In this document: positions 36,860-50,277 of the stretch, one piece after another
Position numbering within the stretch: position 1 is the stretch's first letter
Layout: every line of letters begins with the position of its first letter
From: Clostridiales bacterium UBA4080
Lineage (GTDB): Bacteria; Bacillota; Clostridia; Lachnospirales; Vallitaleaceae
NCBI GenBank assembly: GCA_002381865.1
Contig: DFYO01000019.1
Span: 76,202-140,201, forward strand
Length of the DNA: 64,000 nucleotides
Reading direction: 5' to 3'
Notes under the pieces: model-generated
Databases searched by the model: none
Told to the model about the DNA's origin: nothing
What the model saw: only the letters and a program-made list of their open reading frames with translations
Position numbers and translations under genes: made by a program

Positions 36860-37016
36860 TCCTTAATTACAAACACTTTAGGTGTTTATAATTATAAAAC
36901 AATTTCACTCAAACAAGAAATTACTTAAAAATTGTCCCCCCAAAACCAATTTATAAAGGCAGCATTAAAAACGTCTGCCTTTAATATTTCATAAAGATAA
37001 CCTTAGGAGAGTAGAT

Positions 37017-38090
37017 ATGTCATCAAATGTTACCCCTGTAAATAACTCTAGAAAAAACAGCCTTTTATCCATTGACTTTATGCGTTCAATTTGTTGTATA
37101 CTTGTTGTAATAATTCATGTTACTGCAGCCTTTTGGTATGTGTTTGAGCAAGGCAGCCTTCAATTCAAGACAATAATTTTTTTAAACACCTTATCCAAAT
37201 TTGCAGTACCTGCCTTTATTTTTATTAGTGGCTTTGTACTTTATTATGTTTATTCTTCAAGGGATTTACATTTAATCGATTTTTATAAAAAAAGAATGTT
37301 CAAGGTTATTATTCCATATATAATCTGGAGCACAATATATATTCTAGTAAATTATGCAGCTGTCGGTCAGCCTATTAATCTTAAAAGTCTTACATATTAT
37401 TTTTTTCTTGGCAAGGCTAACTATCATCTTTATTATATAAGCTTAATTTTACAGTTTTACATACTTTTTCCAATTCTCTTGAAAATATACCAGCGTTTTT
37501 CAAACCCAATTATTCCAGTAGGACTATTTACATTACTTAACTTCACTTTTATAAGTTATGTTAAGATAAATTTCAGTGACCGTATTTTTATTTATTATCT
37601 TATGTTCTTTATTCTAGGCTTCCTGCTAGCCGACTTTAAAAAGAAGGAAATAAAACCATCATTATATTTTTTAACTCTTATTACGCTTATCTACTCAATG
37701 GTTGCCACATACTATTTACTTGATACCTATAAGGTTTTAATTAATGCTGATTTAATCTCCAGATATCTTTACAAGCATAGCTGGTGGTACTTTAGTATTG
37801 TATCTATACTTTTTTTATACAGCATTTCAAGCTTTTCCGAAAAAAAGCTTCCAGCTCTGATTAATAATTCTTTTATTACTTCAATCGGAAAACACTCTTT
37901 TACTATATATCTTTGTCATCCTTTAATTATGAAGATATTGCATTTCCTTACTCCTTATAAAAATTTATTAAAAACAAACCCCAGCATCTTAATCATACTG
38001 GAGTTTATAATTGTATTATTATTCTCTTGGCTTTTAAGCTATTTATTATCAGAGCTTAAAGTTCGTCTTAAAGCTTCAAAAATCAACTAG
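37017..38090 (+). CDS. acyltransferase family 3 membrane protein
   Basis: 357 aa, about 10 TM helices. N-terminal motif LLSIDFMRSICCILVVIIHV. Confidence 0.8.
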   Translation: MSSNVTPVNNSRKNSLLSIDFMRSICCILVVIIHVTAAFWYVFEQGSLQFKTIIFLNTLSKFAVPAFIFISGFVLYYVYSSRDLHLIDFYKKRMFKVIIPYIIWSTIYILVNYAAVGQPINLKSLTYYFFLGKANYHLYYISLILQFYILFPILLKIYQRFSNPIIPVGLFTLLNFTFISYVKINFSDRIFIYYLMFFILGFLLADFKKKEIKPSLYFLTLITLIYSMVATYYLLDTYKVLINADLISRYLYKHSWWYFSIVSILFLYSISSFSEKKLPALINNSFITSIGKHSFTIYLCHPLIMKILHFLTPYKNLLKTNPSILIILEFIIVLLFSWLLSYLLSELKVRLKASKIN

Positions 38091-38098
38091 CGAGCTAA

Positions 38099-38875
38099 TT
38101 ACTGCTCTAGCTTTTCAGCTAGAGTCTCTAACCAATCACCCTTAAACAATTCTATAATACCATTGTCGCATACCTTTGAAAGCCCTTCTGCAATAGGTAT
38201 TCTTGCTAAAACCTCAAGTTCTTGTTCTTTAGCATAGCTTTCAAGCTTTGATTCTCCAAAAACGGGAAACTCTGTTTCACAATTTGAGCATTTATAATAT
38301 GACATATTTTCAACTATTCCAATTATTGGTACATTCATTAGCTTAGCCATTTTAACAGCTTTTGTTACTACACTTGAAACCAATTCCTGCGGTGTTGTTA
38401 CTATTATGATGCCATCTAGCTTGATAGATTGAAATGTTGTCAAGGCTACATCTCCAGTCCCTGGCGGCATATCAATAAACATATAATCAATATTGCCCCA
38501 GATAACCTCCTGCCAGTATTTTTTCACCATATCTCCTAAAAGAGGCCCTCTCCAAATTACAGGATCTGTTTCATCCTCCAGCATTAAGTTTACCGACATT
38601 ATAGAAATACCGGATTTGCTTTTTACTGGATATATACCAAATTCGCTTTGATGAGCTTTTTCAGTTAATCCAAAGCTTTTTGGGATTGATGGTCCTGTAA
38701 TATCTGCATCAATAATTCCCACCTTATGATTTCTTCTTTCCATCGACACGGCAAGCATTGAGGTTACAATTGACTTTCCAACCCCACCCTTTCCGCTAAC
38801 AATTCCTATAGTTTTTTTAATATTGCTTAGCTCGTGAGGTTCAACAATTAAGCTTTGTTTTTCTTGTGTACTCAT
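38099..38875 (-). CDS. Mrp/NBP35 family ATP-binding protein
   Basis: Deviant Walker A SGKGGVGKS. CxxC motif (KCSNCE). Confidence 0.88.
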   Translation of the reverse strand: MSTQEKQSLIVEPHELSNIKKTIGIVSGKGGVGKSIVTSMLAVSMERRNHKVGIIDADITGPSIPKSFGLTEKAHQSEFGIYPVKSKSGISIMSVNLMLEDETDPVIWRGPLLGDMVKKYWQEVIWGNIDYMFIDMPPGTGDVALTTFQSIKLDGIIIVTTPQELVSSVVTKAVKMAKLMNVPIIGIVENMSYYKCSNCETEFPVFGESKLESYAKEQELEVLARIPIAEGLSKVCDNGIIELFKGDWLETLAEKLEQ

Positions 38876-38993
38876 TTTGTATTTCTCCTTATAATTATAT
38901 ACATCTTTCCTACAATATAGACTTGGAAAGATTATTTAGCCTTCCTTTTTAAAAATCCAAACTTGTCCATACTAATACAATAAAGGATTACGA

Positions 38994-39842
38994 TTATAGC
39001 ATAGCCTTAGTATTAGTACTAGTATCCAACATCTCACCGGTTCTAATATAAGCTATTTTATTGCCCATACTATTTTTTAGCTCTTCATAAGCTTCTTCTC
39101 CGGTACAATGACAAGTATAATACATTGTATTGTTTTTGGAAAGTGCCTCACTCAATAATTTTAAATGCTCTTTTGATTCAGACTTGTTATTAGCTCTGCT
39201 ATGAAGATGAAAGCCGCCAATCACTAAATCTAATTCTCTTCCTATAATTGATTTTGCTTTATTAATAATATTCACAATGCCATTATGTGCACATCCCGCT
39301 ATTAATATAGCCTTTTCCTTTTCAAGAATTATAAGACTAATTTCATGTGAAAAAGCATCATTTTCAAATTCATTATCCTTCATAGTATATAAATCATCAT
39401 TGCCTCTTGGAAATAAGTATTTTTCATCTGCTCCCACAAAAATTATTAGACCTTCCTTTATATGGGAAGTATCTTCTATAAATACAAATTGCGGATTATT
39501 TTCCATATTTTTATCTAAACCAATATAGGCCTTTTCATCGTCTTCTCTGTTTGAATAATAATCTCCAAAGGCATTTTTGTGTATATAAACGCTAGCCTTT
39601 GAATTAATGCTGAAAAAGGTTTTCAATCCTCCTCCATGATCATAATGTCCGTGAGAAATAATAGCCCTATCTGCTTTTTCAATGCTAACATCCATTTTTT
39701 TTGCATTTTCTGCAAATAAACCGCTTTGTCCTGTATCAAATAATATATTACCACTTTCGCTTTCTATATATAAGCTTAACCCATGCTCTGTTTTATAATT
39801 TTCTTTACACGCTGTATTTTCTACTAGACATTTTATTATCAT
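38994..39842 (-). CDS. MBL-fold metallo-hydrolase
   Basis: ISHGHYDHGGG metal motif. Start at MIIKCLV (39842) after AGGAGGGA. Confidence 0.8.
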   Translation of the reverse strand: MIIKCLVENTACKENYKTEHGLSLYIESESGNILFDTGQSGLFAENAKKMDVSIEKADRAIISHGHYDHGGGLKTFFSINSKASVYIHKNAFGDYYSNREDDEKAYIGLDKNMENNPQFVFIEDTSHIKEGLIIFVGADEKYLFPRGNDDLYTMKDNEFENDAFSHEISLIILEKEKAILIAGCAHNGIVNIINKAKSIIGRELDLVIGGFHLHSRANNKSESKEHLKLLSEALSKNNTMYYTCHCTGEEAYEELKNSMGNKIAYIRTGEMLDTSTNTKAML

Positions 39843-39859
39843 TATGTCCCTCCTAATAA

Positions 39860-40744
39860 TTATCTCAAAGGCTTTTTCCCTTCCATACATACACTATGAA
39901 AAATCGTTCCCTTTGTTATATCAGCAATTACTGAACATTTTATTAAAAACAGAAAAAATAATCCATTCTTCTCTTGATTACGCAAACCTTCAAAATTCCC
40001 TTGTCCTTTTGCAATTACTGTATCTGCTTCATCAAAGCATTTCTGAAATTCTTCAGAGGTTCTTTCCAATATTGTTCCTGGAATACCACTTCCCGAGCTT
40101 ATAATTTCTGATATTTCTTCTAGCTTAATCTGAAAAGCATCTTCTTCAGTGATATCATTCACTATATGCTTACCCCTTACGCCAAAGGTAATTTCAATGT
40201 CAGGAAAATCTTTTTTTATTTGTTCAATAAAAAGTCTATCTAGTACAATTTCGCCACAATTATCCCCTATATACAGAAGCTTTTTTGACCTTTTCAAGCT
40301 TGCATACAATTTTTCAGAATGATCAATGCAAAACTCTCCTTTATTTTCAAAATCTTCAATATCAGATAGCACTTCTGCTCTATTAAAGGAATGGCTTGCT
40401 GCAAAATCAATCTTATTTCCAGCTGCTGCAAGCTTAAGCGCCAAATAAAAGGCGTCTTTTCGTTTATCCAGCTTTTCCTTTAAAACAGGATATAAGCTCA
40501 TTAATTCGCTATTGTAAAACTCTTTGATTTTTTTATAGGGATTGCTTTCATTATAAGCCTCTGTAATTATTTTATAGGTTGTCTGCATTAATTCAGGCTC
40601 TGATTGAGAATAGCTTTCCTTTGACAAGGCTGACAAAACCTCTCTTAATGCTTTTTCCTGTCTTTCCTCTGAAGCTCCAATTAATTCTCCTATTTTTTCA
40701 ACCTGAGCAATATTGCATCCCAAGCATTTAATATTTATTATCAT
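39860..40744 (-). CDS. DUF89 / ARMT1-like damage-control phosphatase family protein
   Basis: LLYIGDNCGEIVLD and KGQGNFEGL motifs, as I recall for DUF89. Confidence 0.7.
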   Translation of the reverse strand: MIINIKCLGCNIAQVEKIGELIGASEERQEKALREVLSALSKESYSQSEPELMQTTYKIITEAYNESNPYKKIKEFYNSELMSLYPVLKEKLDKRKDAFYLALKLAAAGNKIDFAASHSFNRAEVLSDIEDFENKGEFCIDHSEKLYASLKRSKKLLYIGDNCGEIVLDRLFIEQIKKDFPDIEITFGVRGKHIVNDITEEDAFQIKLEEISEIISSGSGIPGTILERTSEEFQKCFDEADTVIAKGQGNFEGLRNQEKNGLFFLFLIKCSVIADITKGTIFHSVCMEGKKPLR

Positions 40745-40881
40745 ATTGTCCTCTCTTAAAAATTCTTTTATTTTAGGTTGCTATTCTATATGTAATATAC
40801 CCTTTATAAAAAATTTTTTCAACGGCTTTTTTCATGTCTAGTTTTTTAATACTCTCATCTACATAATTTTTTGGCCACTAT

Positions 40882-41376
40882 TTACAAAAATGATATCTTT
40901 GAAAAATCGATTGTATTATCCTCGTTCATAATGTTCTCTTTTGCATGAACATATTCAATTTTACCAATAAACATTTCATGCGAACCTGTCTTTATTGAAT
41001 TTACAACCTTACATTCAATATTAACCGGACAATCTGACAGAATCGGAGCATTAACAGTTTTTCCCTCTTCTAATTTGACATTCATTTTCTCAAGCTTATT
41101 TCCATCTCGCTTACTATTACTGCCTAAATAATCAAAAACCTCTTTATAGTCCTTATCAACAAGATTTACAACAAATGTACCCGATTCCTTTATCATCTTA
41201 TAGGAATATCTAGACGGTACAATTCCAACCATAACCATAGGAGGATCGTAGCTACAATTCCCACAGTATCCAACCGCTAAAACATTATCCTCCCCCTCTA
41301 GACTTCTACAAGATACCAATACCTTTGCCACTGGCTGCAATGCAGATTTTTTTGCCGCTTCTTTCTTCAAACTCAT
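40882..41376 (-). CDS. flavin reductase family protein
   Basis: 164 aa, flavin-reductase-like beta-barrel motifs (DPPMVMVGI, GTFVVNL). Confidence 0.7.
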   Translation of the reverse strand: MSLKKEAAKKSALQPVAKVLVSCRSLEGEDNVLAVGYCGNCSYDPPMVMVGIVPSRYSYKMIKESGTFVVNLVDKDYKEVFDYLGSNSKRDGNKLEKMNVKLEEGKTVNAPILSDCPVNIECKVVNSIKTGSHEMFIGKIEYVHAKENIMNEDNTIDFSKISFL

Positions 41377-41452
41377 AATAATCCTCCAAGATATTTATAT
41401 TTTCAACAGCAAAAAGACAGGAAGCATCCCTGCCTATTTGCTTGCTATTGAT

Positions 41453-41788
41453 TTAATTATTACTAAGTGATTCAAGCTGTTTTTTAATAAATGAAAGCTG
41501 AGTTTCTAATAGTGCAGCTTGCTTTTCCAAGCCCTCTTTTTCATTCATCCATGGATTTTTTAAAGCATCGCCACTATAGCTATACTTGAAAAATCTGCCA
41601 AGGCCATTAAAGCAATTAAACCCTCTATTGCCTCGACCTCCAGCTAGTCTTCTTCCAGCTCCAAATCCGAGTCCTCTTCCGAAACCCAAGTTATTAGCTG
41701 TGCTTTCATTGCAAAAGCCTGCACCTCTTCCAGTCATAGCTCCCATTCCAAAAGGTCCTGTTTTATCTCCTCTAGGCACAAATATCAT
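41453..41788 (-). CDS. DUF5320-like protein
   Basis: PRGDKTGPFGMGAMTGRGAGFC N-terminus, Gly/Arg-rich middle, C-terminal coiled coil. Confidence 0.6.
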   Translation of the reverse strand: MIFVPRGDKTGPFGMGAMTGRGAGFCNESTANNLGFGRGLGFGAGRRLAGGRGNRGFNCFNGLGRFFKYSYSGDALKNPWMNEKEGLEKQAALLETQLSFIKKQLESLSNN

Positions 41789-41809
41789 CTCCTTTCATTC
41801 AAGAAATAA

Positions 41810-41863
41810 TTATTGACATATGTCTAATATAATACTACATCCATTTAGAACATATGTCAATAA
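41810..41863. promoter_or_regulatory. paired 14-bp operators flanking the promoter of the DUF5320 operon
   Basis: TTATTGACATATGT (41810..41823) and its exact reverse complement (41850..41863). On the minus strand, TTGACA-17 nt-TAGTAT sits between and over the arms. Confidence 0.55.
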
Positions 41864-41912
41864 TATTTTTTATTTTTTTATTTATCCTCCGAATAATATT
41901 GTAAAATACGTA

Positions 41913-41948
41913 AAAGAAGGAGCTATGCTTCTCGCTTAGCTCCTTCTT
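41913..41948 (-). terminator. hairpin terminator, exact copy of 44243..44278
   Basis: AAGAAGGAGCTA-loop-TAGCTCCTTCTT 12-bp stem followed by TTTTA on the minus strand. Confidence 0.7.
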
Positions 41949-42186
41949 AAAACAGCTTTAACTATCCCCATTCTTTTTTGCCTTGCACAAATATCTTATT
42001 CCTATTTCCGAAAGTAAAATCACGCAATGTTACTATGACAACTATCCTGCCCCCAGAGTTATTGATAGTCTATTAATGTTTTTTATCTTATACCTCAATA
42101 TATCACATTTAATCTTAAATATCTAAGTTCTTATTTCCCGTAAATCATAACACTATTTTACAAGGATTATTCCACACTGTCACAAA

Positions 42187-42549
42187 TTACTTTCTTCTCC
42201 AATCATAAACTCCATTAGGTAAATCTATTGAATTTCCATTGATTATTACTGTGTCATCATCAGCCCATTCGACAATTGCCTCCTCTTCCCTATATCCCCA
42301 ATAGATATTTTTTTTATTTCCATTAACTATTAATTCACCACGAATAGCATTTGCTACTGTAGCGCTTCCTCTACACAAATAAGTTTTTACTGTATATTCA
42401 TTAGAAGGGGATATTGATTCCCCAATCAATTCTCCTTCTGGCAAGCGCTCCATATTATTAAAGAAATACAAAATTAAATATAACATTATACACACTATAA
42501 TAATAAAACTTATTGTTATGCCGAAAAACCATTCCTTTTTATTATTCAT
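42187..42549 (-). CDS. DUF5412-like membrane-anchored protein
   Basis: N-terminal TM helix, then RLPEGELI...SP..EYTVKTY...ATVANAIRGEL...KNIYWGYREEEA.VEW.DDDTVIING. This matches my recollection of DUF5412. Start at MNNKK (42549) after GGGGGAGG. Confidence 0.65.
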   Translation of the reverse strand: MNNKKEWFFGITISFIIIVCIMLYLILYFFNNMERLPEGELIGESISPSNEYTVKTYLCRGSATVANAIRGELIVNGNKKNIYWGYREEEAIVEWADDDTVIINGNSIDLPNGVYDWRRK

Positions 42550-42589
42550 TTTCCTCCCCCTTCTTCTTAAATAAATCAAATATTGCTAA

Positions 42590-43528
42590 TCAAAACCTTG
42601 GGTATACTTTACTAAATCTCCACGCCGTATGGCGCCCTATCCCTTCAATAATGGCATCCTGATCTCTTGGATCATCAAAATATGTACTAAACCAACTAGC
42701 TTGATAAGTTCCTGATACTATTTGATATACACCAGCCGCTGCACATAAAGTTGTTTTAACAAACAATACACTTCCCACAGTACCATAATGCATATTCCCA
42801 ATATCCTCACCCGTTTTAATCGCTTTATATGATTTAAAATCACAATAATACTTGTTTGTCTTGCCTAAAGTTTTCTTGTAATCCCATGCTCCTCCAGTTT
42901 TAACCTTTGATACAAAATATAATGCTGCGTACGTAATGGAATTATTGTGATTATGTCCTGCATTATAGTATGATGTATACACTCCATAAAGTATTGTTGC
43001 ATTTCTTTTTGCTATATCATAGTAAGGATAGTCAAGCATTTTGATTGTTACTGCATCATTATTATTCGACTCTTTTATTTCATTATTTCCAGTAAAGTTT
43101 CTTTCTATTTTATTATTTATTTCATAGAGTTCTTTATCATCTATCAACCCATAATACTTTCCGCCTTTTGTTGTCAATTCATGATAAATTGCATCATAGT
43201 TTTCACACAAAAACTCTACTCCTTCTCTGTCCTCCTTAATCTCCTGATCTAGATAGTTTATTACTGAATAGTCACTGTTAACCTTAATTAAACCTAAGTC
43301 TACCAGAAAATTAATTGATTTAAGAAATTTTTCTTCACCGACTTCTGCTCTTCCTTTTAACCTAATATTACCAACGCAATCAACATCATACTTCCCCTTA
43401 TCTATTATTATTTCTTTCTTGTCTTCAGCCACCGTATCTTTTTCTTTTGCCAAAACCGAAACGTTAATACTACCTACCATCGCTAATACTAAAATCATTG
43501 TAATACATCTTCTAATTAATTTCATCAT
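42590..43528 (-). CDS. secreted protein with C-terminal polymorphic-toxin-like (Ntox44-like) domain
   Basis: Sec signal peptide (MILVLAMVGSINVSVLA). The C-terminus has GGAWDYKK, IGNMHYGTVG and YFDDPRDQDAI, motifs I associate with polymorphic toxin type 44. Confidence 0.5.
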   Translation of the reverse strand: MMKLIRRCITMILVLAMVGSINVSVLAKEKDTVAEDKKEIIIDKGKYDVDCVGNIRLKGRAEVGEEKFLKSINFLVDLGLIKVNSDYSVINYLDQEIKEDREGVEFLCENYDAIYHELTTKGGKYYGLIDDKELYEINNKIERNFTGNNEIKESNNNDAVTIKMLDYPYYDIAKRNATILYGVYTSYYNAGHNHNNSITYAALYFVSKVKTGGAWDYKKTLGKTNKYYCDFKSYKAIKTGEDIGNMHYGTVGSVLFVKTTLCAAAGVYQIVSGTYQASWFSTYFDDPRDQDAIIEGIGRHTAWRFSKVYPRF

Positions 43529-43541
43529 TTTTTCCCCTTTT

Positions 43542-43685
43542 TTAATAGATTTCTTTTCCTACTTCATGTGGCGTCGTTATCGACGTTCCGTCCATCTCTA
43601 CATATCTTCCATCAATCCCTGTAGAGTAAATGTTTACTCCCGGTGCTCCTTTATCAGCTCCCGTGATTGCTAAAAAGTCTGCGAT
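43542..43685 (-). pseudogene. remnant of a subtilisin-like (S8) serine protease
   Basis: The only S8-like part is ...GAPGVNIYSTGIDGRYVEMDGTSITTPH..., the catalytic-Ser box GTS..(A/T)PH. There is no Asp or His box, and the reading frame stops 7 codons later. Confidence 0.6.
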
Positions 43686-44242
43686 TTTCCGTTTTTGTCG
43701 ATTGCTCCCACACTTATTAACTCTAGATAAAAAGTATAGCATACATTTAATGCCTATATTTCTCCCTCTTGCATAACAACACAAATGATTGCTACTTTAG
43801 TATATTAAGTAACCGATTATTATTTTCGCGCGCAAATAATAAATCAATTATTAATACCAGATTAAACTGTTTATAGCTTATTCAATTTTTTCAATAGGGA
43901 AAATTTTAGATATTCCCCGCCTCAGATTTCTTTTTAGATTGGGTTGGTTAATTTTTTCACCAACATGGTATATTATACCCCCCCCCGAAATGTCAAGCAC
44001 TTTTTTTGCCGTAAACTTTTATTGCGTAAACTTTTATTGAAACTTCCCGTTTTTCGGCATTCGGGAAGTTAGTTTGACAATAACTACGAGGGTTTTTCTT
44101 ATATTTTCAATAAATTATACAGCTATTGTAAAAATCAGAAATGACTTCTATATTATAAGACTGCATAAAAGACATCAATAACCTAAAATATAAAAGACGA
44201 GATTTCTCACTTTATAAGCATTAAGATAACTTTTAATATTTT

Positions 44243-44278
44243 AAAGAAGGAGCTATGCTTCTCGCTTAGCTCCTTCTT
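44243..44278 (-). terminator. hsp20 terminator, exact copy of 41913..41948
   Basis: Same 36 nt. Starts 9 nt after the hsp20 stop codon. Confidence 0.75.
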
Positions 44279-44287
44279 TAAGCAACC

Positions 44288-44734
44288 CTATTCAATTTCT
44301 ATTTCTTTAGCTTTAGGCTTTACAGGCTCTTGCTTTGGAAGTGTAAGAGTTAATATTCCATCCTCAAGCTTTGCTGCTATTTCTTCTGATATTACATTTT
44401 CAAGTCTAAAAGACCTTTTCATATTTATTGCCTTACGTTCCTTTCTAATGTAATTATCCTTTTCGTGATTACTTTCTTCTCTTTTCTCGATAGCTATAGT
44501 AAGCAAATCATTTTCAATATTAACCTTAATTTCTTCTTTTTTCAATCCTGGAACCTCAGCAATTATTTGAAATTCATTTTCTTCTTCCTTAATATCAACA
44601 TTCAAACCAGTATAAGCTGTTCCAAATGAAGGAAAAAAGCTATCTTCAAAAAAACTGTCAAACATACTGTCAAAATTCCATAAGCTATTATTTCTTTGTA
44701 CCTCATTTTTTCTGATTGGTGATAATCCAAACAT
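44288..44734 (-). CDS. Hsp20/alpha-crystallin family small heat-shock protein
   Basis: Alpha-crystallin domain (FQIIAEVPGLKKEEIKV...GILTLTLPK). Confidence 0.9.
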   Translation of the reverse strand: MFGLSPIRKNEVQRNNSLWNFDSMFDSFFEDSFFPSFGTAYTGLNVDIKEEENEFQIIAEVPGLKKEEIKVNIENDLLTIAIEKREESNHEKDNYIRKERKAINMKRSFRLENVISEEIAAKLEDGILTLTLPKQEPVKPKAKEIEIE

Positions 44735-44815
44735 AATAACACCTCCAAATAGTAAAATAATTATTGTTTTCTTTATATTATTTTTACCATATTAGAAATA
44801 TTATCTCAAGTTTTA

Positions 44816-44842
44816 TTAGCACTCACTTGGCTCGAGTGCTAA
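44816..44842. promoter_or_regulatory. CIRCE operator (HrcA binding site)
   Basis: TTAGCACTC-N9-GAGTGCTAA, a perfect match to the consensus, 82 nt upstream of the hsp20 ATG. Confidence 0.85.
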
Positions 44843-44941
44843 TAATTATTCTTTTTCAACACTTGTTTATATTTGATTTTCTTAATTTTTCTCGCTTTTT
44901 CTTTGATTTACTATCTTTTTCATATAAACCTTAGCTTTCTT

Positions 44942-45931
44942 TTATCTTTCTTCTCTAAAATAAGGAACACTTAGCCCTTTTGGCGGTGCATTTTCCTTGC
45001 TTTTTTTAACCGAGCCAATAACGAGAATAATTATAGTTACCAGATAAGGCAGCATATCCAAAAGATTTTGTGAAATACTTAAATGCTGAAGCCTGAAGCC
45101 TATAATACTAAGCCCACCGAAAAGATATGCTCCAATTGCTGCTTTATATGGGTTCCATTTGCAGAAAATTACTAATGCAATAGCAATCCATCCTCTTCCT
45201 GCCGTAATATTTTCCTGCCACTGCGGAACCTCAACTACTGAAAGATAAGCTCCTCCAAGTCCACAAAGGGCTCCGCCAATCAAAATATGTGCATACTTAT
45301 ATACGGTTATATTAACCCCCGAAGTATCAGCAGCACCAGGATTTTCTCCAACTGCCCTCAAATTAAGTCCCATTCTTGTATGGTAAAGATATATTCCCAT
45401 AATTATTGCCAATATGTAACCAAGATAAACAAAAATATCTTGAACAAAAAATATTTTCCCTAGTAACGGAATCTTGTCTAATACGGGAATTGCAATTGGC
45501 TCAAAGTAAGAAATAACCTTTTCTGGCATTTTATTCCCAATAAAATTTGTTCCAAGATAGCTTGACATGCCTGTTCCAAAAATAGTAAGCGCAAGTCCTG
45601 ATACTACCTGGTTTGCTCTTAGGGATATAGTCAGAAACCCATATATCATAGCAGCTAAAGCACCTGCAAGTAATGCGCCTAACATAGCCATATAAGGATT
45701 GGCTGTGTAATAACCCGCTCCAAAGCCAGCAACCGCTCCACAAAGCATCATTCCTTCAACACCAAGATTTAAGTTGCCCGCCTTTTCAGTAATCAGCTCT
45801 CCTAAAGTTGCAAACAGCAATGGTGTTCCCGCTATTACAACTGCCACCATAAATGAATTACCCATAAAATATTTTCCGCTAACAATCAATCCTATAACAA
45901 CAATTATAAGTAATATATTATTTTTTTTCAT
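44942..45931 (-). CDS. ABC transporter permease (BMP/nucleoside-type system)
   Basis: 329 aa polytopic protein. Overlaps the upstream permease gene. Confidence 0.8.
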   Translation of the reverse strand: MKKNNILLIIVVIGLIVSGKYFMGNSFMVAVVIAGTPLLFATLGELITEKAGNLNLGVEGMMLCGAVAGFGAGYYTANPYMAMLGALLAGALAAMIYGFLTISLRANQVVSGLALTIFGTGMSSYLGTNFIGNKMPEKVISYFEPIAIPVLDKIPLLGKIFFVQDIFVYLGYILAIIMGIYLYHTRMGLNLRAVGENPGAADTSGVNITVYKYAHILIGGALCGLGGAYLSVVEVPQWQENITAGRGWIAIALVIFCKWNPYKAAIGAYLFGGLSIIGFRLQHLSISQNLLDMLPYLVTIIILVIGSVKKSKENAPPKGLSVPYFREER

Positions 45932-47000
45932 CTATGGCACCTCCTTGCATTTTAGCCTTGTTAAAAACAAGCTTATACTGAACAAAAAACTCACTGCCAA
46001 TTACAAAAAACAGAATAATACTTTGAATTAAGGTTGCTGCCGACTGTGGAATCTGATATGCAGTTTGAATAAATCCTCCACCCTTGATAAGACCAGCAAA
46101 CAAAATTGATACCGGCACAATTATTGCAGCATTTAAACCAGAAAGCCAGGTTGTAATAATAGCCGTATATCCATAGCCCGCTGAGAGCTGTGAGGTAAGC
46201 GTCTGATTTACAGCCGAGGCTTGCATCATTCCAACAATACCACAAATCCCGCCACTAATAATAACCGAGGTAAGAATGATTCTTTTTACATCCATTCCCG
46301 CATATCTAGCTGTATCTATACTTTCTCCAACTACAGAAATCTCATAGCCTCTCTTAGAATTATTCATCAAATATGCTACTGCTACAACAAAAATTAATGC
46401 AATAATCCATCCAATATGAATTCCAAAAAGCTTTGGTAATATAGCACTATCGGTAAAGTTTTTGATTTTTGGAAATCCCATTGAATTTGGATCTCTCCAC
46501 GGCCCATATTGTAAAAATGTAATCCATTTTATAGCAATATAATTCATCATCAGGGTAATAATTGTTTCATTAGCATCAAACTTAACCTTTAATAAAGCAG
46601 GAATACTAGCCCATAAGCCTCCGCCAACAAAGCCTCCTATTAACATTAATAAAAGCAATATGGGTTTAGGCAGTCCGTCAAAATAAAGAGCAAAATAGGT
46701 TGCTGCAAAGGCTCCCATTAATATCTGACCTTCTGCACCAATATTCCAAAATTTCATTTTAAAGGCTATCATTATTCCGATCGACGTTATTACAAGAGGT
46801 ATCGCAATTGTTAGTGTATCCTTTAATCTAAAGCTCGAGCCAAAGGCACCCTTTATCATAGAAACATAAACCTCAACAGGATTATGCTTTAATATCAAAA
46901 TGAATATTCCCGACACGACTAATGCTAATAAAATAGCATAAATTCTAATTAAAGCTGATTGCTTTTGTGTAATATCAGCTCTTTTTATCATTCTTATCAC
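45918..47000 (-). CDS. ABC transporter permease (BMP/nucleoside-type system)
   Basis: 360 aa polytopic protein. 4-nt overlap with the ATPase gene. Confidence 0.8.
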   Translation of the reverse strand: MIRMIKRADITQKQSALIRIYAILLALVVSGIFILILKHNPVEVYVSMIKGAFGSSFRLKDTLTIAIPLVITSIGIMIAFKMKFWNIGAEGQILMGAFAATYFALYFDGLPKPILLLLMLIGGFVGGGLWASIPALLKVKFDANETIITLMMNYIAIKWITFLQYGPWRDPNSMGFPKIKNFTDSAILPKLFGIHIGWIIALIFVVAVAYLMNNSKRGYEISVVGESIDTARYAGMDVKRIILTSVIISGGICGIVGMMQASAVNQTLTSQLSAGYGYTAIITTWLSGLNAAIIVPVSILFAGLIKGGGFIQTAYQIPQSAATLIQSIILFFVIGSEFFVQYKLVFNKAKMQGGAIDEKK

Positions 47001-48520
47001 AGGCTCACCTCCATAGGTCCTTTTTCACCAGCCATCATAAGACCCAGCTGTTCCTTATTGACCTCTTTAGCTGAGACAATTCCTGTTATTTCACCATCGC
47101 AAAGAACCATAATTCTATCGCATAGCTCTAAGAGAACATCTAAATCCTCTCCAATAAACAAGATTGCAACTCCCTTTTTCTTTTGCTCATTTATCAAATC
47201 ATATATCTTATGTGATACTCCAATATCCAGCCCTCTTACAGCATAGGCAGTTATCAAAACATGAGGGTTCATTTCTATTTCTCTTCCGATTAGAACCTTT
47301 TGTATATTCCCTCCTGAAAGCTGTCTTACAGGATGATGAATACCCGGTGTTCTAATATCAAGCTTTTCAATCATTTCCTTGCATTTTTTTGAAACTGGTT
47401 TTCTTTTTAATATTAACCCTTTTTGATTATGATGTTCCTTTAGCAGAAAATTATCTACCATATCCATTGATGCAACAAGACCCATTCCTAATCTGTCTTC
47501 CGGAATAAAGCTCATGCTTATTCCTTTTTTTATAATATCTCTAGGCGTCTTGCCAACAATGTTTTCTCCATCGTATATTATTTCGCCACTATCAACACTA
47601 TATAAGCCCGCAATGCTTTCACACAATTCTTTTTGACCACTGCCAGCAACTCCTGCAACTCCCAGTATTTCTCCTGCATGCAAATCAAAGGTGATATTTT
47701 TCAGCACCTCAACCTTCTCGACATCTGTTGCCTTAAGCGCATTTATTTTTAATATAGCTTCGCCTTTTTCTGTTTCAGGTCTTTCAATTGATAAATTCAC
47801 AGACATACCTACCATCAAATCCGTAAGCGCCTTTGGATTTGTATCTGCTGTGTATAATGTCCCAACTGTTGTACCCTTTCTTAAAACCGTAACTCTGTCC
47901 GATACCTCCATAACCTCATGGAGCTTATGCGTAATAATTATAATTGCACAGCCCTCTTTTGCCATATTTTTCATTATTTTAAATAGCTTTTTAGTTTCTT
48001 GAGGTGTAAGTACTGCTGTCGGCTCATCCATAATCAGGATATCTGCTCCCTGATATAATACCTTTAATATTTCTACTGCTTGTTTTTCTCCAATTGACAT
48101 ATCATAAATCTTTTTATCCGGATCAATTGCAAGCCCAAACTGATTTGAAATTTTATTAATCTGTTCTGTCAGCTTTTTATTGTTCATAAAAAGCTTTCCA
48201 CTTTGACCGATAATAATATTTTCTTTTGCAGTCTGTACCTCCACTAATTTATAGTGCTGATGAATCATACCAATTCCCTTTTGAATGGAATCCTTTGGTG
48301 AATTAATTTTCACTTCATTTCCATGGATATAAATAGAACCGCTGTCAGGTCTGTATATACCTGACAGCATGTTCATAAGTGTGCTTTTACCTGCACCGTT
48401 TTCTCCAAGCAGTGCATGAATTTCACCTTTATTCACTTCAAAATTAATATGATCATTTGCCTTAACCGTTCCAAAGGTTTTTGATATGTTTTTCATCTTA
48501 ACAAAAACATTCTGATTCAT
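46997..48520 (-). CDS. ABC transporter ATP-binding protein, duplicated cassette
   Basis: GENGAGKST Walker A, a second cassette with GVAGSGQKE, and LSGGNIQKV. Confidence 0.9.
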   Translation of the reverse strand: MNQNVFVKMKNISKTFGTVKANDHINFEVNKGEIHALLGENGAGKSTLMNMLSGIYRPDSGSIYIHGNEVKINSPKDSIQKGIGMIHQHYKLVEVQTAKENIIIGQSGKLFMNNKKLTEQINKISNQFGLAIDPDKKIYDMSIGEKQAVEILKVLYQGADILIMDEPTAVLTPQETKKLFKIMKNMAKEGCAIIIITHKLHEVMEVSDRVTVLRKGTTVGTLYTADTNPKALTDLMVGMSVNLSIERPETEKGEAILKINALKATDVEKVEVLKNITFDLHAGEILGVAGVAGSGQKELCESIAGLYSVDSGEIIYDGENIVGKTPRDIIKKGISMSFIPEDRLGMGLVASMDMVDNFLLKEHHNQKGLILKRKPVSKKCKEMIEKLDIRTPGIHHPVRQLSGGNIQKVLIGREIEMNPHVLITAYAVRGLDIGVSHKIYDLINEQKKKGVAILFIGEDLDVLLELCDRIMVLCDGEITGIVSAKEVNKEQLGLMMAGEKGPMEVSL

Positions 48521-48536
48521 GGCAAACTCCTATAAA

Positions 48537-49643
48537 CTATTTTATTGTTCCTTCAACGCCTTTAACGAACCAGTCAAAGCTTAACATTTCCTGGTCAGTC
48601 ATTTTAACGCCTTCAGCTACCTTAACTTCTCCACTTTGATCATAAAGAGGTCCTTCAAAGATATACTCTGAACCGTCTAATATTGTCGCCTTAGCTGCAT
48701 CCACTGCCTCTTGTGCGCCTTCTGGAGCATTTGCTGTAAGTGGTGCAAGTCTAACTACATCTTCCGCCATTCCTTCCCATGAAGAATGTGACTTGAAAGT
48801 TCCATCCATTACCGCTTGTGTTTGCTCAACATAATATGGTCCCCAGTTCCAGATTGGTGCTGTCATATATGCTTTTGGAGCCATCTTACTCATATCAGTA
48901 TTATATCCTATTGAAAAAGCACCTCTTTCTTCAGCTGCCTGCTGTGGTCCTGCTGTATCCTGATGTTGTGCAATAATATCTGCTCCGCCATCTAATAATG
49001 CAATTGCTGCTGATTTTTCTTTTTCTGGGTCATACCAGGTAGATGTCCATGTTACTTTTACCTTTACATCAGGATTAACTGATTGCGCCCCTAATGTAAA
49101 TGCATTGATACCACGTACTACTTCAGGAATAGGAAATGCCGCAACATAACCGATTTGGTTGGATTCAGTTTTTAAGCCTGCTACAATTCCTGATAGGTAT
49201 CTTGCTTGGTATATTCTTCCGAAATAATTAGCCATATTGTCTGTGCTCATATAACCTGAGCAATGGAAAAACTTTACGTCTGGGAATTCCTTGGAAATTT
49301 TTTCTACATATTCCATATATCCAAAGCTTGTTGCAAAAATTGCTTTTGCTCCCTGGTCAATCATATTACGAATTTCCTGCTCTACATCCTGTGTTTCAGG
49401 AACTGATTCTTTATATATAGTTTTTACTCCAAGCTCTTGCTCAAGAAATAATCTTCCTTGATCATGTGCATAAGTATAACCGCCATCTCCGATTGGTCCT
49501 ACATAAATAAATCCAACAATCATGTCTTTTGCGTCAATTTTAGCTGCTTCTTGTTTTTTTGTACCGTCATCAGTTTTTGCTCCACATCCTGCCATTGCAA
49601 AAACGAGGGACAAAACCAATAATAGTGATACGAGTTTTTTCAT
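48537..49643 (-). CDS. BMP-family ABC transporter substrate-binding lipoprotein
   Basis: Lipobox AMAGCG. Med/BMP (PnrA-like) architecture. Confidence 0.8.
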   Translation of the reverse strand: MKKLVSLLLVLSLVFAMAGCGAKTDDGTKKQEAAKIDAKDMIVGFIYVGPIGDGGYTYAHDQGRLFLEQELGVKTIYKESVPETQDVEQEIRNMIDQGAKAIFATSFGYMEYVEKISKEFPDVKFFHCSGYMSTDNMANYFGRIYQARYLSGIVAGLKTESNQIGYVAAFPIPEVVRGINAFTLGAQSVNPDVKVKVTWTSTWYDPEKEKSAAIALLDGGADIIAQHQDTAGPQQAAEERGAFSIGYNTDMSKMAPKAYMTAPIWNWGPYYVEQTQAVMDGTFKSHSSWEGMAEDVVRLAPLTANAPEGAQEAVDAAKATILDGSEYIFEGPLYDQSGEVKVAEGVKMTDQEMLSFDWFVKGVEGTIK

Positions 49644-49704
49644 CTTTTTACCTCCTGAAATTTAATTAATGTGTTTTTTCACTTAATCTGTTGATAGGTT
49701 TTGA

Positions 49705-50277
49705 TTAGTTGATAAAGGTGATTTTGCCGTGTTTAAAACGATCTACAATAACTAAGGATTCCAGGTTAACTCCTGCTTCCCTAAGCTTATTGCCTCCATT
49801 TTGAAAGCCTTTTTCAATGACTATTCCAACACCGCTTACATTAGCTTGTGCCTGCTCTACCAAGTCAATGAGTGCTAAGGCTGCTTTTCCATTTGCTAAA
49901 AAGTCATCTAGTATTAGTACGTTATCTCCCTTATGAATGTATCTTTTAGAGACTTGAATGTCGTAATATTTTTCCTTTGTAAAAGAATACACAACACTTT
50001 TGTACGTTTCTTTGTCAAGATTTCTTGACTCTGTCTTTTTTGCAAATACTACCGGAACCTTGAAATACATTGCAGCAATTGATGCTATAGCAATTCCTGA
50101 AGCTTCTATTGTAAGTATTCTTGTGATATTTTTGTCTTTAAATCTATCATAAAATTCCTTGCCGATATCTTGAAATAATTCTATATCCAGCTGATGATTT
50201 AAAAACGAATCTACCTTTAATACTTCCTCAGAAACAACCCTGCCTTCATCCAATATTCTTTTTTTCAAAGATTCCAT
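49705..50277 (-). CDS. xpt: xanthine phosphoribosyltransferase
   Basis: 190 aa. MESLKKRILDEGRV...LKVDSFLNHQ...VLILDDFLANG PRPP loop. Confidence 0.9.
   Translation of the reverse strand: MESLKKRILDEGRVVSEEVLKVDSFLNHQLDIELFQDIGKEFYDRFKDKNITRILTIEASGIAIASIAAMYFKVPVVFAKKTESRNLDKETYKSVVYSFTKEKYYDIQVSKRYIHKGDNVLILDDFLANGKAALALIDLVEQAQANVSGVGIVIEKGFQNGGNKLREAGVNLESLVIVDRFKHGKITFIN

Follow-up and report, generated by a model that had tools for sequence, protein, structure and literature searches.

A strain-variable islet between two copies of the hsp20 terminator hairpin in Clostridiales bacterium UBA4080

How can a small group of genes enter or leave a chromosome when it carries no recombinase or transposase of its own? 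The question is raised by a locus in Clostridiales bacterium UBA4080, a member of the Vallitaleaceae, within a stretch of 64,000 nucleotides of contig DFYO01000019.1 (assembly GCA_002381865.1, positions 76,202 to 140,201 of the forward strand) that is referred to here as the window. An islet of 2,294 bp, encoding a toxin-like secreted protein and a small membrane protein, lies there between two identical 36-nt hairpins, one of which is the predicted terminator of the small heat-shock gene hsp20. The islet is a strain-variable gain-or-loss cassette without a recombinase, situated immediately 3′ of the hsp20 terminator and flanked on each side by the exact hairpin. It is highly probable that it represents an insertion/deletion polymorphism of the kind known as insertion with long target duplication (ILTD), bounded by a duplicated terminator. 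The best explanation overall, to which a probability of about 0.7 is assigned, is an ILTD-type islet at the hsp20 terminator that arose by a hairpin-linked break or template switch and whose two hairpin copies act as insulators.

Terminator hairpin and empty site

The repeat AAAGAAGGAGCTATGCTTCTCGCTTAGCTCCTTCTT occupies positions 41913-41948 and 44243-44278 of the window (plus-strand coordinates) in direct orientation, and its copies are identical at 36 of 36 nucleotides, as a preliminary description of the stretch had reported; all genes at the locus are on the minus strand. No hairpin match arose in 100 shuffles of the window, the 2.24-Mb genome holds two copies when up to three mismatches are allowed, and a blastn-short search of the genome gave nothing further longer than 19 nt. 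With only two copies present, a terminator repeat common throughout the genome, which the preliminary description had named as a possible refutation, is ruled out. Among the exact direct repeats of at least 20 nt lying no more than 30 kb apart on all contigs, the 36-nt pair is the sole one to form a strong hairpin, the remainder being paralogous genes or copies of an 82-bp element. This element (ACAAGAATAGCGTTCGGTGAACGCGTTTCT...) provides the commonest short direct repeats on the islet's own contig (C53:2514-30730, 65827-96242) and is also found on contigs C20, C73, and C19; a relationship to the hairpin was rejected because the sequences are unrelated. A stem-only pattern scan of public metagenome and species-genome collections returned just a Sphingobacterium hairpin with another loop and unrelated flanks.

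The right copy starts 9 nt downstream of the hsp20 stop codon and folds as RNA with −25.4 kcal/mol (z −5.7), within a range for the hairpin folds of −21.8 to −25.4 kcal/mol and z scores of −4.3 to −7.1 versus shuffles. The stem is perfect over 12 bp, reaching 13-15 bp in the right copy, and the tails read TTCTTTT and TTCTTTA. A stable, G+C-containing stem-loop, a T-run, and a position after a stop codon identify the hairpin as a predicted intrinsic terminator, in line with the earlier assignment of the right copy to hsp20. A simple terminator scan missed it because the scan admits loops of up to 8 nt, and an RNA-family search of hairpin and leader gave only sub-threshold L20-leader noise. Outside the 36 nt, left and right copies have flanks that resemble each other no more than shuffled sequences do, which rules out a longer, decayed duplication and defines the duplicated unit as beginning exactly with the 12-bp stem and ending one base past it.

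An exact look-up of the DUF5320 protein, whose gene follows the left hairpin, led to a 134-kb ENA contig from a sister strain (L024, ERZ27315046) in which hsp20 is directly followed by DUF5320. On alignment, this contig has one hairpin, with the flank of the window's right copy upstream and that of its left copy downstream, and equals the window minus 2,330 bp, its junction lying precisely at the point expected from the removal of the islet together with one repeat. A 97%-identical hsp20 allele led to three more empty-site contigs (L030, L031, and L032), again with one hairpin each, the four coming from independent samples (ENA ERZ27315046, JGI 3300002219, JGI 3300000568, and SRR636559). This is the arrangement of hsp20, single hairpin, and DUF5320 that the preliminary description had proposed to seek in relatives; the contrary outcome that it had envisaged, relatives sharing two diverged copies, was not encountered, as the one other strain found has a single copy. 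Besides the window genome, contigs from JGI 3300000032, JGI 3300002446, and SRR636597 that share 99.97-100% identity with it show the occupied state. The downstream operon of DUF5320, flavin reductase, ARMT1-like, MBL, and Mrp/ParA genes comes straight after hsp20 in the sister and has the same gene order.

Between the two strains, identity of the flanks is 92-97% overall and rises to 98-100% over the 500 nt nearest the junction; either the event is recent or the flanks have been homogenised. Divergence between the window (36900-50200) and L024 is a mosaic in which 250-nt blocks at 100% stand beside blocks at 91-95%, indicating frequent homologous exchange in the population, and identity drops to ∼81% beyond the Mrp/ParA gene.

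None of the three open reading frames of the islet contains a recombinase or transposase domain by Pfam, and there are no terminal inverted repeats at its ends. No tyrosine recombinase (PF00589) gene is present on the 188-kb contig C53, serine recombinases not having been searched separately; the nine tyrosine recombinase genes of the genome are all on other contigs. The GC profile, suggested earlier as a check, showed no contrast between islet (0.317) and genome (0.342), for which reason a foreign composition was rejected. A plasmid or phage source was likewise rejected, as blastn against both collections gave no match. An insertion sequence, for which a short target duplication of 2-14 bp was taken as criterion, is not indicated by a segment with a 36-bp duplication and neither inverted repeats nor a transposase domain. 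Nor is an integron (attC) cassette, since the contig lacks PF00589, the islet has its own promoter module, and the hairpin contains no GTTRRRY core. An element bounded by attL and attR would carry the same core at each end, with a single copy at the empty site; both are found, and both are common to ILTD and do not discriminate, while the contig encodes no tyrosine recombinase that could be the cognate integrase.

The description of ILTD is based on restriction-modification genes (Nobusato et al., 2000; Furuta et al., 2010, PMC2853133), and the criteria are an insert of <20 kb, a duplication of >30 bp, absence of mobility genes, uniqueness of the repeat, and a single copy in a related genome (PMC2853133). 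The islet shows a 2,294-bp insert, a 36-bp duplication, no mobility gene, a repeat found nowhere else in the genome, and a single hairpin at the empty site of the related strain. It departs from the original screen in one respect, the requirement for restriction-modification cargo, as it carries genes for a secreted toxin-like protein and a membrane protein, the latter a candidate immunity gene.

Cargo and the cassette family

The contents of the islet are collected in Table 1. The toxin-like secreted protein, the DUF5412 protein, and the protease remnant of the preliminary description were all recovered, as an Ntox44-domain protein, DUF5412, and a fragment of an S8 protease; its ∼450 nt of non-coding 'debris', on the other hand, proved to be mostly a conserved, multi-copy promoter/leader module.

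Table 1. Features of the islet, its flanks, and the related cassettes; plain numbers refer to the window, C and L numbers to contigs.
Feature	Coordinates	Strand	Remarks
hsp20 small heat-shock gene	44288..44734	-	Pfam HSP20 1.9e-22; sister-strain protein 97% identical; conserved flank
Right hairpin copy	44243..44278	-	Stem AAGAAGGAGCTA/TAGCTCCTTCTT, 11-nt loop, T-rich tail; hsp20 intrinsic terminator (predicted)
Unique islet stretch, right hairpin to multi-copy module	44106..44242	-	137 nt; no other genome match; unlike empty-site flank
Promoter/leader module	43785..44105	-	Copies 84-92% identical on C76, C40, C12, C6, C67, C59, C41, C42, C19
S8 subtilisin-like protease remnant	43542..43784	-	C-terminal ~61 codons with GTS..PH catalytic-serine motif; ~845 nt gone versus intact paralogue
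Secreted Ntox44-domain protein	42590..43528	-	312 aa; Pfam PF15607 1e-13, 52 bits versus cut-off 24
DUF5412 protein	42187..42579	-	Pfam DUF5412 7.3e-37; one N-terminal transmembrane helix
Non-coding islet tail	41949..42186	-	238 nt, unique; no genome match elsewhere; unlike hsp20 3′ end
Left hairpin copy	41913..41948	-	124 nt upstream of DUF5320 start; fold -23.4 kcal/mol
DUF5320 gene	41453..41788	-	Pfam; first of conserved downstream operon
TTGACA/poly-G/TATAAT promoter copies	43972-43996; C6:53, C12:4361, C19:39776, C40:26, C41:36, C59:7345, C76:2803; sister L042:2673		
Family cassettes	C76:1-6100 (L015), C40:1-2650 (L016), C41:1-3150 (L017), C12:4290-6300 (L018)		

The Ntox44 domain is C-terminal and displays the motifs DxK (216), GNxxxG (244), and DxxxD (285/286), which constitute the Ntox44 signature (Zhang et al., 2012, PMC3482391). 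The protein begins with a Sec-type signal peptide, MMKLIRRCITMILVLAMVGSINV, that is conserved in the paralogues on C76 and C40. Its closest homologues among 5.8 billion proteins share ∼40% identity, with none above 41% except itself, so the sister strain lacks the toxin altogether. The nearest of these homologues are encoded on 6.6-kb contigs (L039-L041) together with RepL, a relaxase, and MobC, and another (L036) has a group II intron reverse transcriptase as its neighbour. The gene after each of the nearest homologues encodes a conserved 87-aa protein with no assigned family, an alternative candidate for the immunity partner.

Adjacency and co-orientation suggest the DUF5412 protein as the candidate immunity protein of the islet toxin. 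The database gene call places its start at 42549, giving a product of 120 aa that recurs unchanged in three metagenome assemblies. A literature search on DUF5412 returned no paper containing the term, and no immunity family is listed for Ntox44 in PMC3482391. The left hairpin is the sole terminator-like structure 3′ of the DUF5412 gene; the islet tail yielded no terminator-like site in the simple scan with its loop limit of 8 nt.

The module consists, in order, of an upstream hairpin (AACTTCCCG...CGGGAAGTT), a TTGACA/poly-G/TATAAT promoter, a conserved leader of ∼190 nt that belongs to no Rfam family, an S8 protease gene, and a signal peptide (MKLIRRCITM...). Window positions 43435-44105 recur at 75-92% identity on at least 10 contigs, often at contig ends, and the module heads at least eight toxin-like cassettes in the genome. 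The 3′ ends of these cassettes vary, with Ntox44 in the islet, Peptidase_C39_2 in one other, and no assigned family in the rest, and next to each secreted protein, on the 3′ side, a small membrane protein or lipoprotein is encoded. The islet thus belongs to a toxin-like cassette family native to the lineage. The S8 gene of the islet corresponds to residues 296-356 of a 356-aa protein (BLASTP 59% identity, 3e-21) that was found intact on C41 only (Pfam Peptidase_S8 1.5e-48). On C76, two cassettes lie in tandem and are followed by an orphan Amidase_6-like fragment.

In the islet, the −35 TTGACA (43996-43991) and the −10 TATAAT (43977-43972) enclose a C9/G9 tract (43978-43986) within a spacer of 13 nt. 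Across the eight promoter copies, each of which heads a toxin-like cassette, the spacer ranges from 13 to 18 nt according to a tract of 6-10 G. The islet spacer lacks TTGA, and the islet module contains the 15-mer CAATAAAAGTTTACG (minus strand, window 44003-44032) twice in tandem, where the other copies have it once. The promoter upstream of infC has an orthologue in the sister strain; its tract is G9 in the window strain, with a spacer of 17, versus G11 in the sister, with a spacer of 19. From their sequences, the poly-G promoters are candidate phase-variable promoters. As for the cassette upstream of infC itself, the genes before it are thrS in the window strain (L018:4100-6700) versus those for PLD and flavodoxin in the sister strain (L042:1-5000); the difference marks a rearrangement with its breakpoint at this promoter module or close by.

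Two further observations concern the genes that flank the islet. The DUF5320 promoter region (window 41809-41884) carries inverted operators, TTGACATATGT...ACATATGTCAA, and a second copy of it, 81% identical, lies ∼57 kb away on the same contig (C53:174887-174961). In the distantly related Firmicutes bacterium HGW-Firmicutes-7 (L034:4445-7950), a Peptidase_C39_2 protein and a small protein are encoded right after hsp20, followed by a segment between two 33-nt direct repeats resembling a tRNA 3′ end and then by an integrase fragment; no duplication of the hsp20 terminator accompanies that cassette.

Origin of the islet

An ILTD-type origin at the hsp20 terminator may be pictured as follows. A break would be made by two strand cuts, one at each base of the terminator hairpin in its extruded form; alternatively, the template would be switched at a replication fork stalled by the hairpin. 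A fragment of a paralogous cassette locus, from this or a related strain, would then be joined into the break, and fill-in would leave a complete hairpin on each side. Both hairpins would act as terminators, leaving hsp20 terminated, and the left one would shield the operator-controlled DUF5320 promoter from an incoming operon without a terminator of its own. With both copies terminating and insulating, such an insertion would be harmless. The two 36-bp direct repeats would also permit precise loss of the islet through recombination or slippage, so that excision through the hairpins is plausible, and the conserved flanks would permit its exchange between strains by homologous recombination. 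Within this scheme, the specific staggered cut at the hairpin bases is put forward tentatively, as a possible but unlikely mechanism.

Several points weigh against the scheme. No Ku homologue was found in the genome; classical Ku-dependent end joining was rejected for this reason, and capture of the fragment by that route is weakened at least if the event took place in this lineage. The islet promoter has a spacer of 13 nt versus 16-18 nt in most copies, which makes present-day expression of the islet doubtful. The thrS-infC cassette belongs to the same family and has no duplication around it, so that hairpin duplication is not the usual route by which the family spreads. Finally, just two lineages are present in the databases, the next relatives of hsp20 being at most 58% identical, and outgroups carry other genes after hsp20; gain in the window strain and loss in the sister are consequently indistinguishable. 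The preliminary interpretation of the repeats as the scar of an insertion that duplicated the hsp20 terminator is accordingly upheld in so far as the sister strain has an empty site with one hairpin, a state that fits gain here as well as loss there.

The alternative with most in its favour concerns this polarity and is compatible with an earlier ILTD-type origin. The two-copy arrangement would be old, with a recent loss in the sister strain by recombination between the repeats, and selection on terminator function would have kept the copies identical. The cassette is indeed not young, as its module is 8-25% diverged from the paralogous ones and both the S8 gene and the promoter have decayed, but this decay could predate the move and have occurred at the donor locus. 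Similarly, the hairpin is unchanged in the sister despite 3-8% divergence of the wider flanks, although zero differences in 36 nt are weak evidence either way. An old arrangement is harder to reconcile with the 98-100% identity of the strains close to the junction and with the occurrence of the toxin in no other record searched. It is judged unlikely, while deserving serious consideration.

Site-specific recombination would make the 36-bp hairpin an attachment site and the islet either a cis-mobilisable element or the remnant of a larger one, the recombinase being encoded elsewhere. Such recombination would equally leave perfect direct repeats and an exact empty site, the genome does possess tyrosine recombinase genes, and the inverted arms of 12-13 bp around an asymmetric centre of 10-11 nt are arranged as in lox, FRT, and dif sites. 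However, neither the islet nor, for tyrosine recombinases, its 188-kb contig supplies an enzyme. The genome contains no third copy of the site and hence no partner element, and public collections yielded the site in no other context. Moreover, the cassette type occurs without such repeats at eight or more other loci, thrS-infC being the one checked, and the role of hsp20 terminator fully accounts for the hairpin. This explanation is therefore improbable.

Little credence can be given to a Campbell-type integration, in which a hairpin-bearing circle, perhaps the excised islet of another strain, would have entered by a RecA-mediated single crossover within the 36 bp. The product would be the one seen, and the mosaic of 100% and 91-95% blocks shows that homologous exchange is frequent. 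Such an integration nevertheless explains the spread of the islet and not its origin, because the circle must first have gained the recipient's terminator; exchange through the long, near-identical flanks would be far more efficient and would not need the repeats. A length of 36 bp is, in addition, near the lower limit for RecA-dependent recombination.

An assembly mis-join at the repeat, or the chance recurrence of a common terminator, can be set aside: although a 36-nt repeat confuses k-mer assemblers and four short-read contigs (L021, L022, L028, and L029) end inside the hairpin, as expected with k near 31, the independently assembled contigs L023 and L027 cross the hsp20-islet and islet-DUF5320 junctions, respectively, and chance is countered by the copy number and the shuffles given above.

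Comparison with known systems

The minimal mobile elements or genomic islets of Neisseria, which Saunders and Snyder reportedly described in 2002, are said to be variable cassettes between conserved flanking genes that recombine through these flanks. The islet is likewise a presence/absence cassette between conserved genes, exchangeable through its flanks; it differs in that its borders are a 36-bp exact duplication, whereas the Neisseria elements are defined by flanking genes. Streptococcal cis-mobilisable elements are integrase-less islands bounded by att-type direct repeats. They share with the islet the direct repeats around a segment without a recombinase and the single copy at the empty site. 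For the islet, by contrast, the searches revealed neither a partner element bearing its site nor an integrase that would match it, and its repeat is a full terminator hairpin instead of a gene 3′ end. CRISPR integration by Cas1-Cas2 and casposon integration involve staggered cuts at the borders of a partly palindromic unit of ∼30-36 bp, by which the unit is duplicated to either side of the insert. The resemblance is one of geometry only, as the insert is 2.3 kb long and neither an array nor cas1 is nearby.

The cargo, for its part, recalls polymorphic toxin cassettes (PMC3482391) in its C-terminal Ntox44 domain, Sec-type leader, and small downstream membrane protein, as well as in its paralogues with a constant 5′ part and variable 3′ ends. 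Unlike in those cassettes, the constant part of the islet family includes a poly-G-spacer promoter and an S8 protease remnant, and the DUF5412 partner is assigned by position, while the neighbour of the nearest Ntox44 homologues is unrelated to it.

The closest parallel, ILTD, differs from the islet in its proposed trigger. Breaks made by the cargo were proposed to be involved (PMC2853133), which is inapplicable here since no nuclease that cuts DNA is encoded in the islet. The duplicated sequence is a terminator hairpin in the present case, and the words 'hairpin', 'terminator', and 'palindrom' are absent from the text of PMC2853133 by word search. Cargo without a DNA-cutting enzyme, together with a duplication that coincides with the terminator hairpin, favours an event driven by the host site.

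Taken alone, the locus adds one more gain-or-loss islet to a known category. It is also a clean case of a small cassette that entered or left the chromosome without an integrase or transposase, with a 36-bp duplication that is a terminator hairpin, and its toxin cargo argues that the host site outweighs the cargo in ILTD. Should many islets show the coincidence with a hairpin, this would narrow down a mechanism left unexplained for 25 years. The duplication would keep hsp20 terminated and the neighbouring operon insulated, which may be why such insertions survive. As a rather speculative extension, a terminator hairpin or cruciform that is extruded and nicked at its bases, or that stalls the fork and provokes a template switch, could be a general route of gene gain without recombinases, with terminators as self-insulating landing pads; such a route is suggested by the match, to within one base, between duplicated unit and hairpin. 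Whatever DNA fragment was at hand would be joined in, and fill-in would restore a functional terminator at either end. If true, this route would serve small cassettes such as toxin, defence, and restriction-modification genes and would supply the missing mechanism of ILTD.

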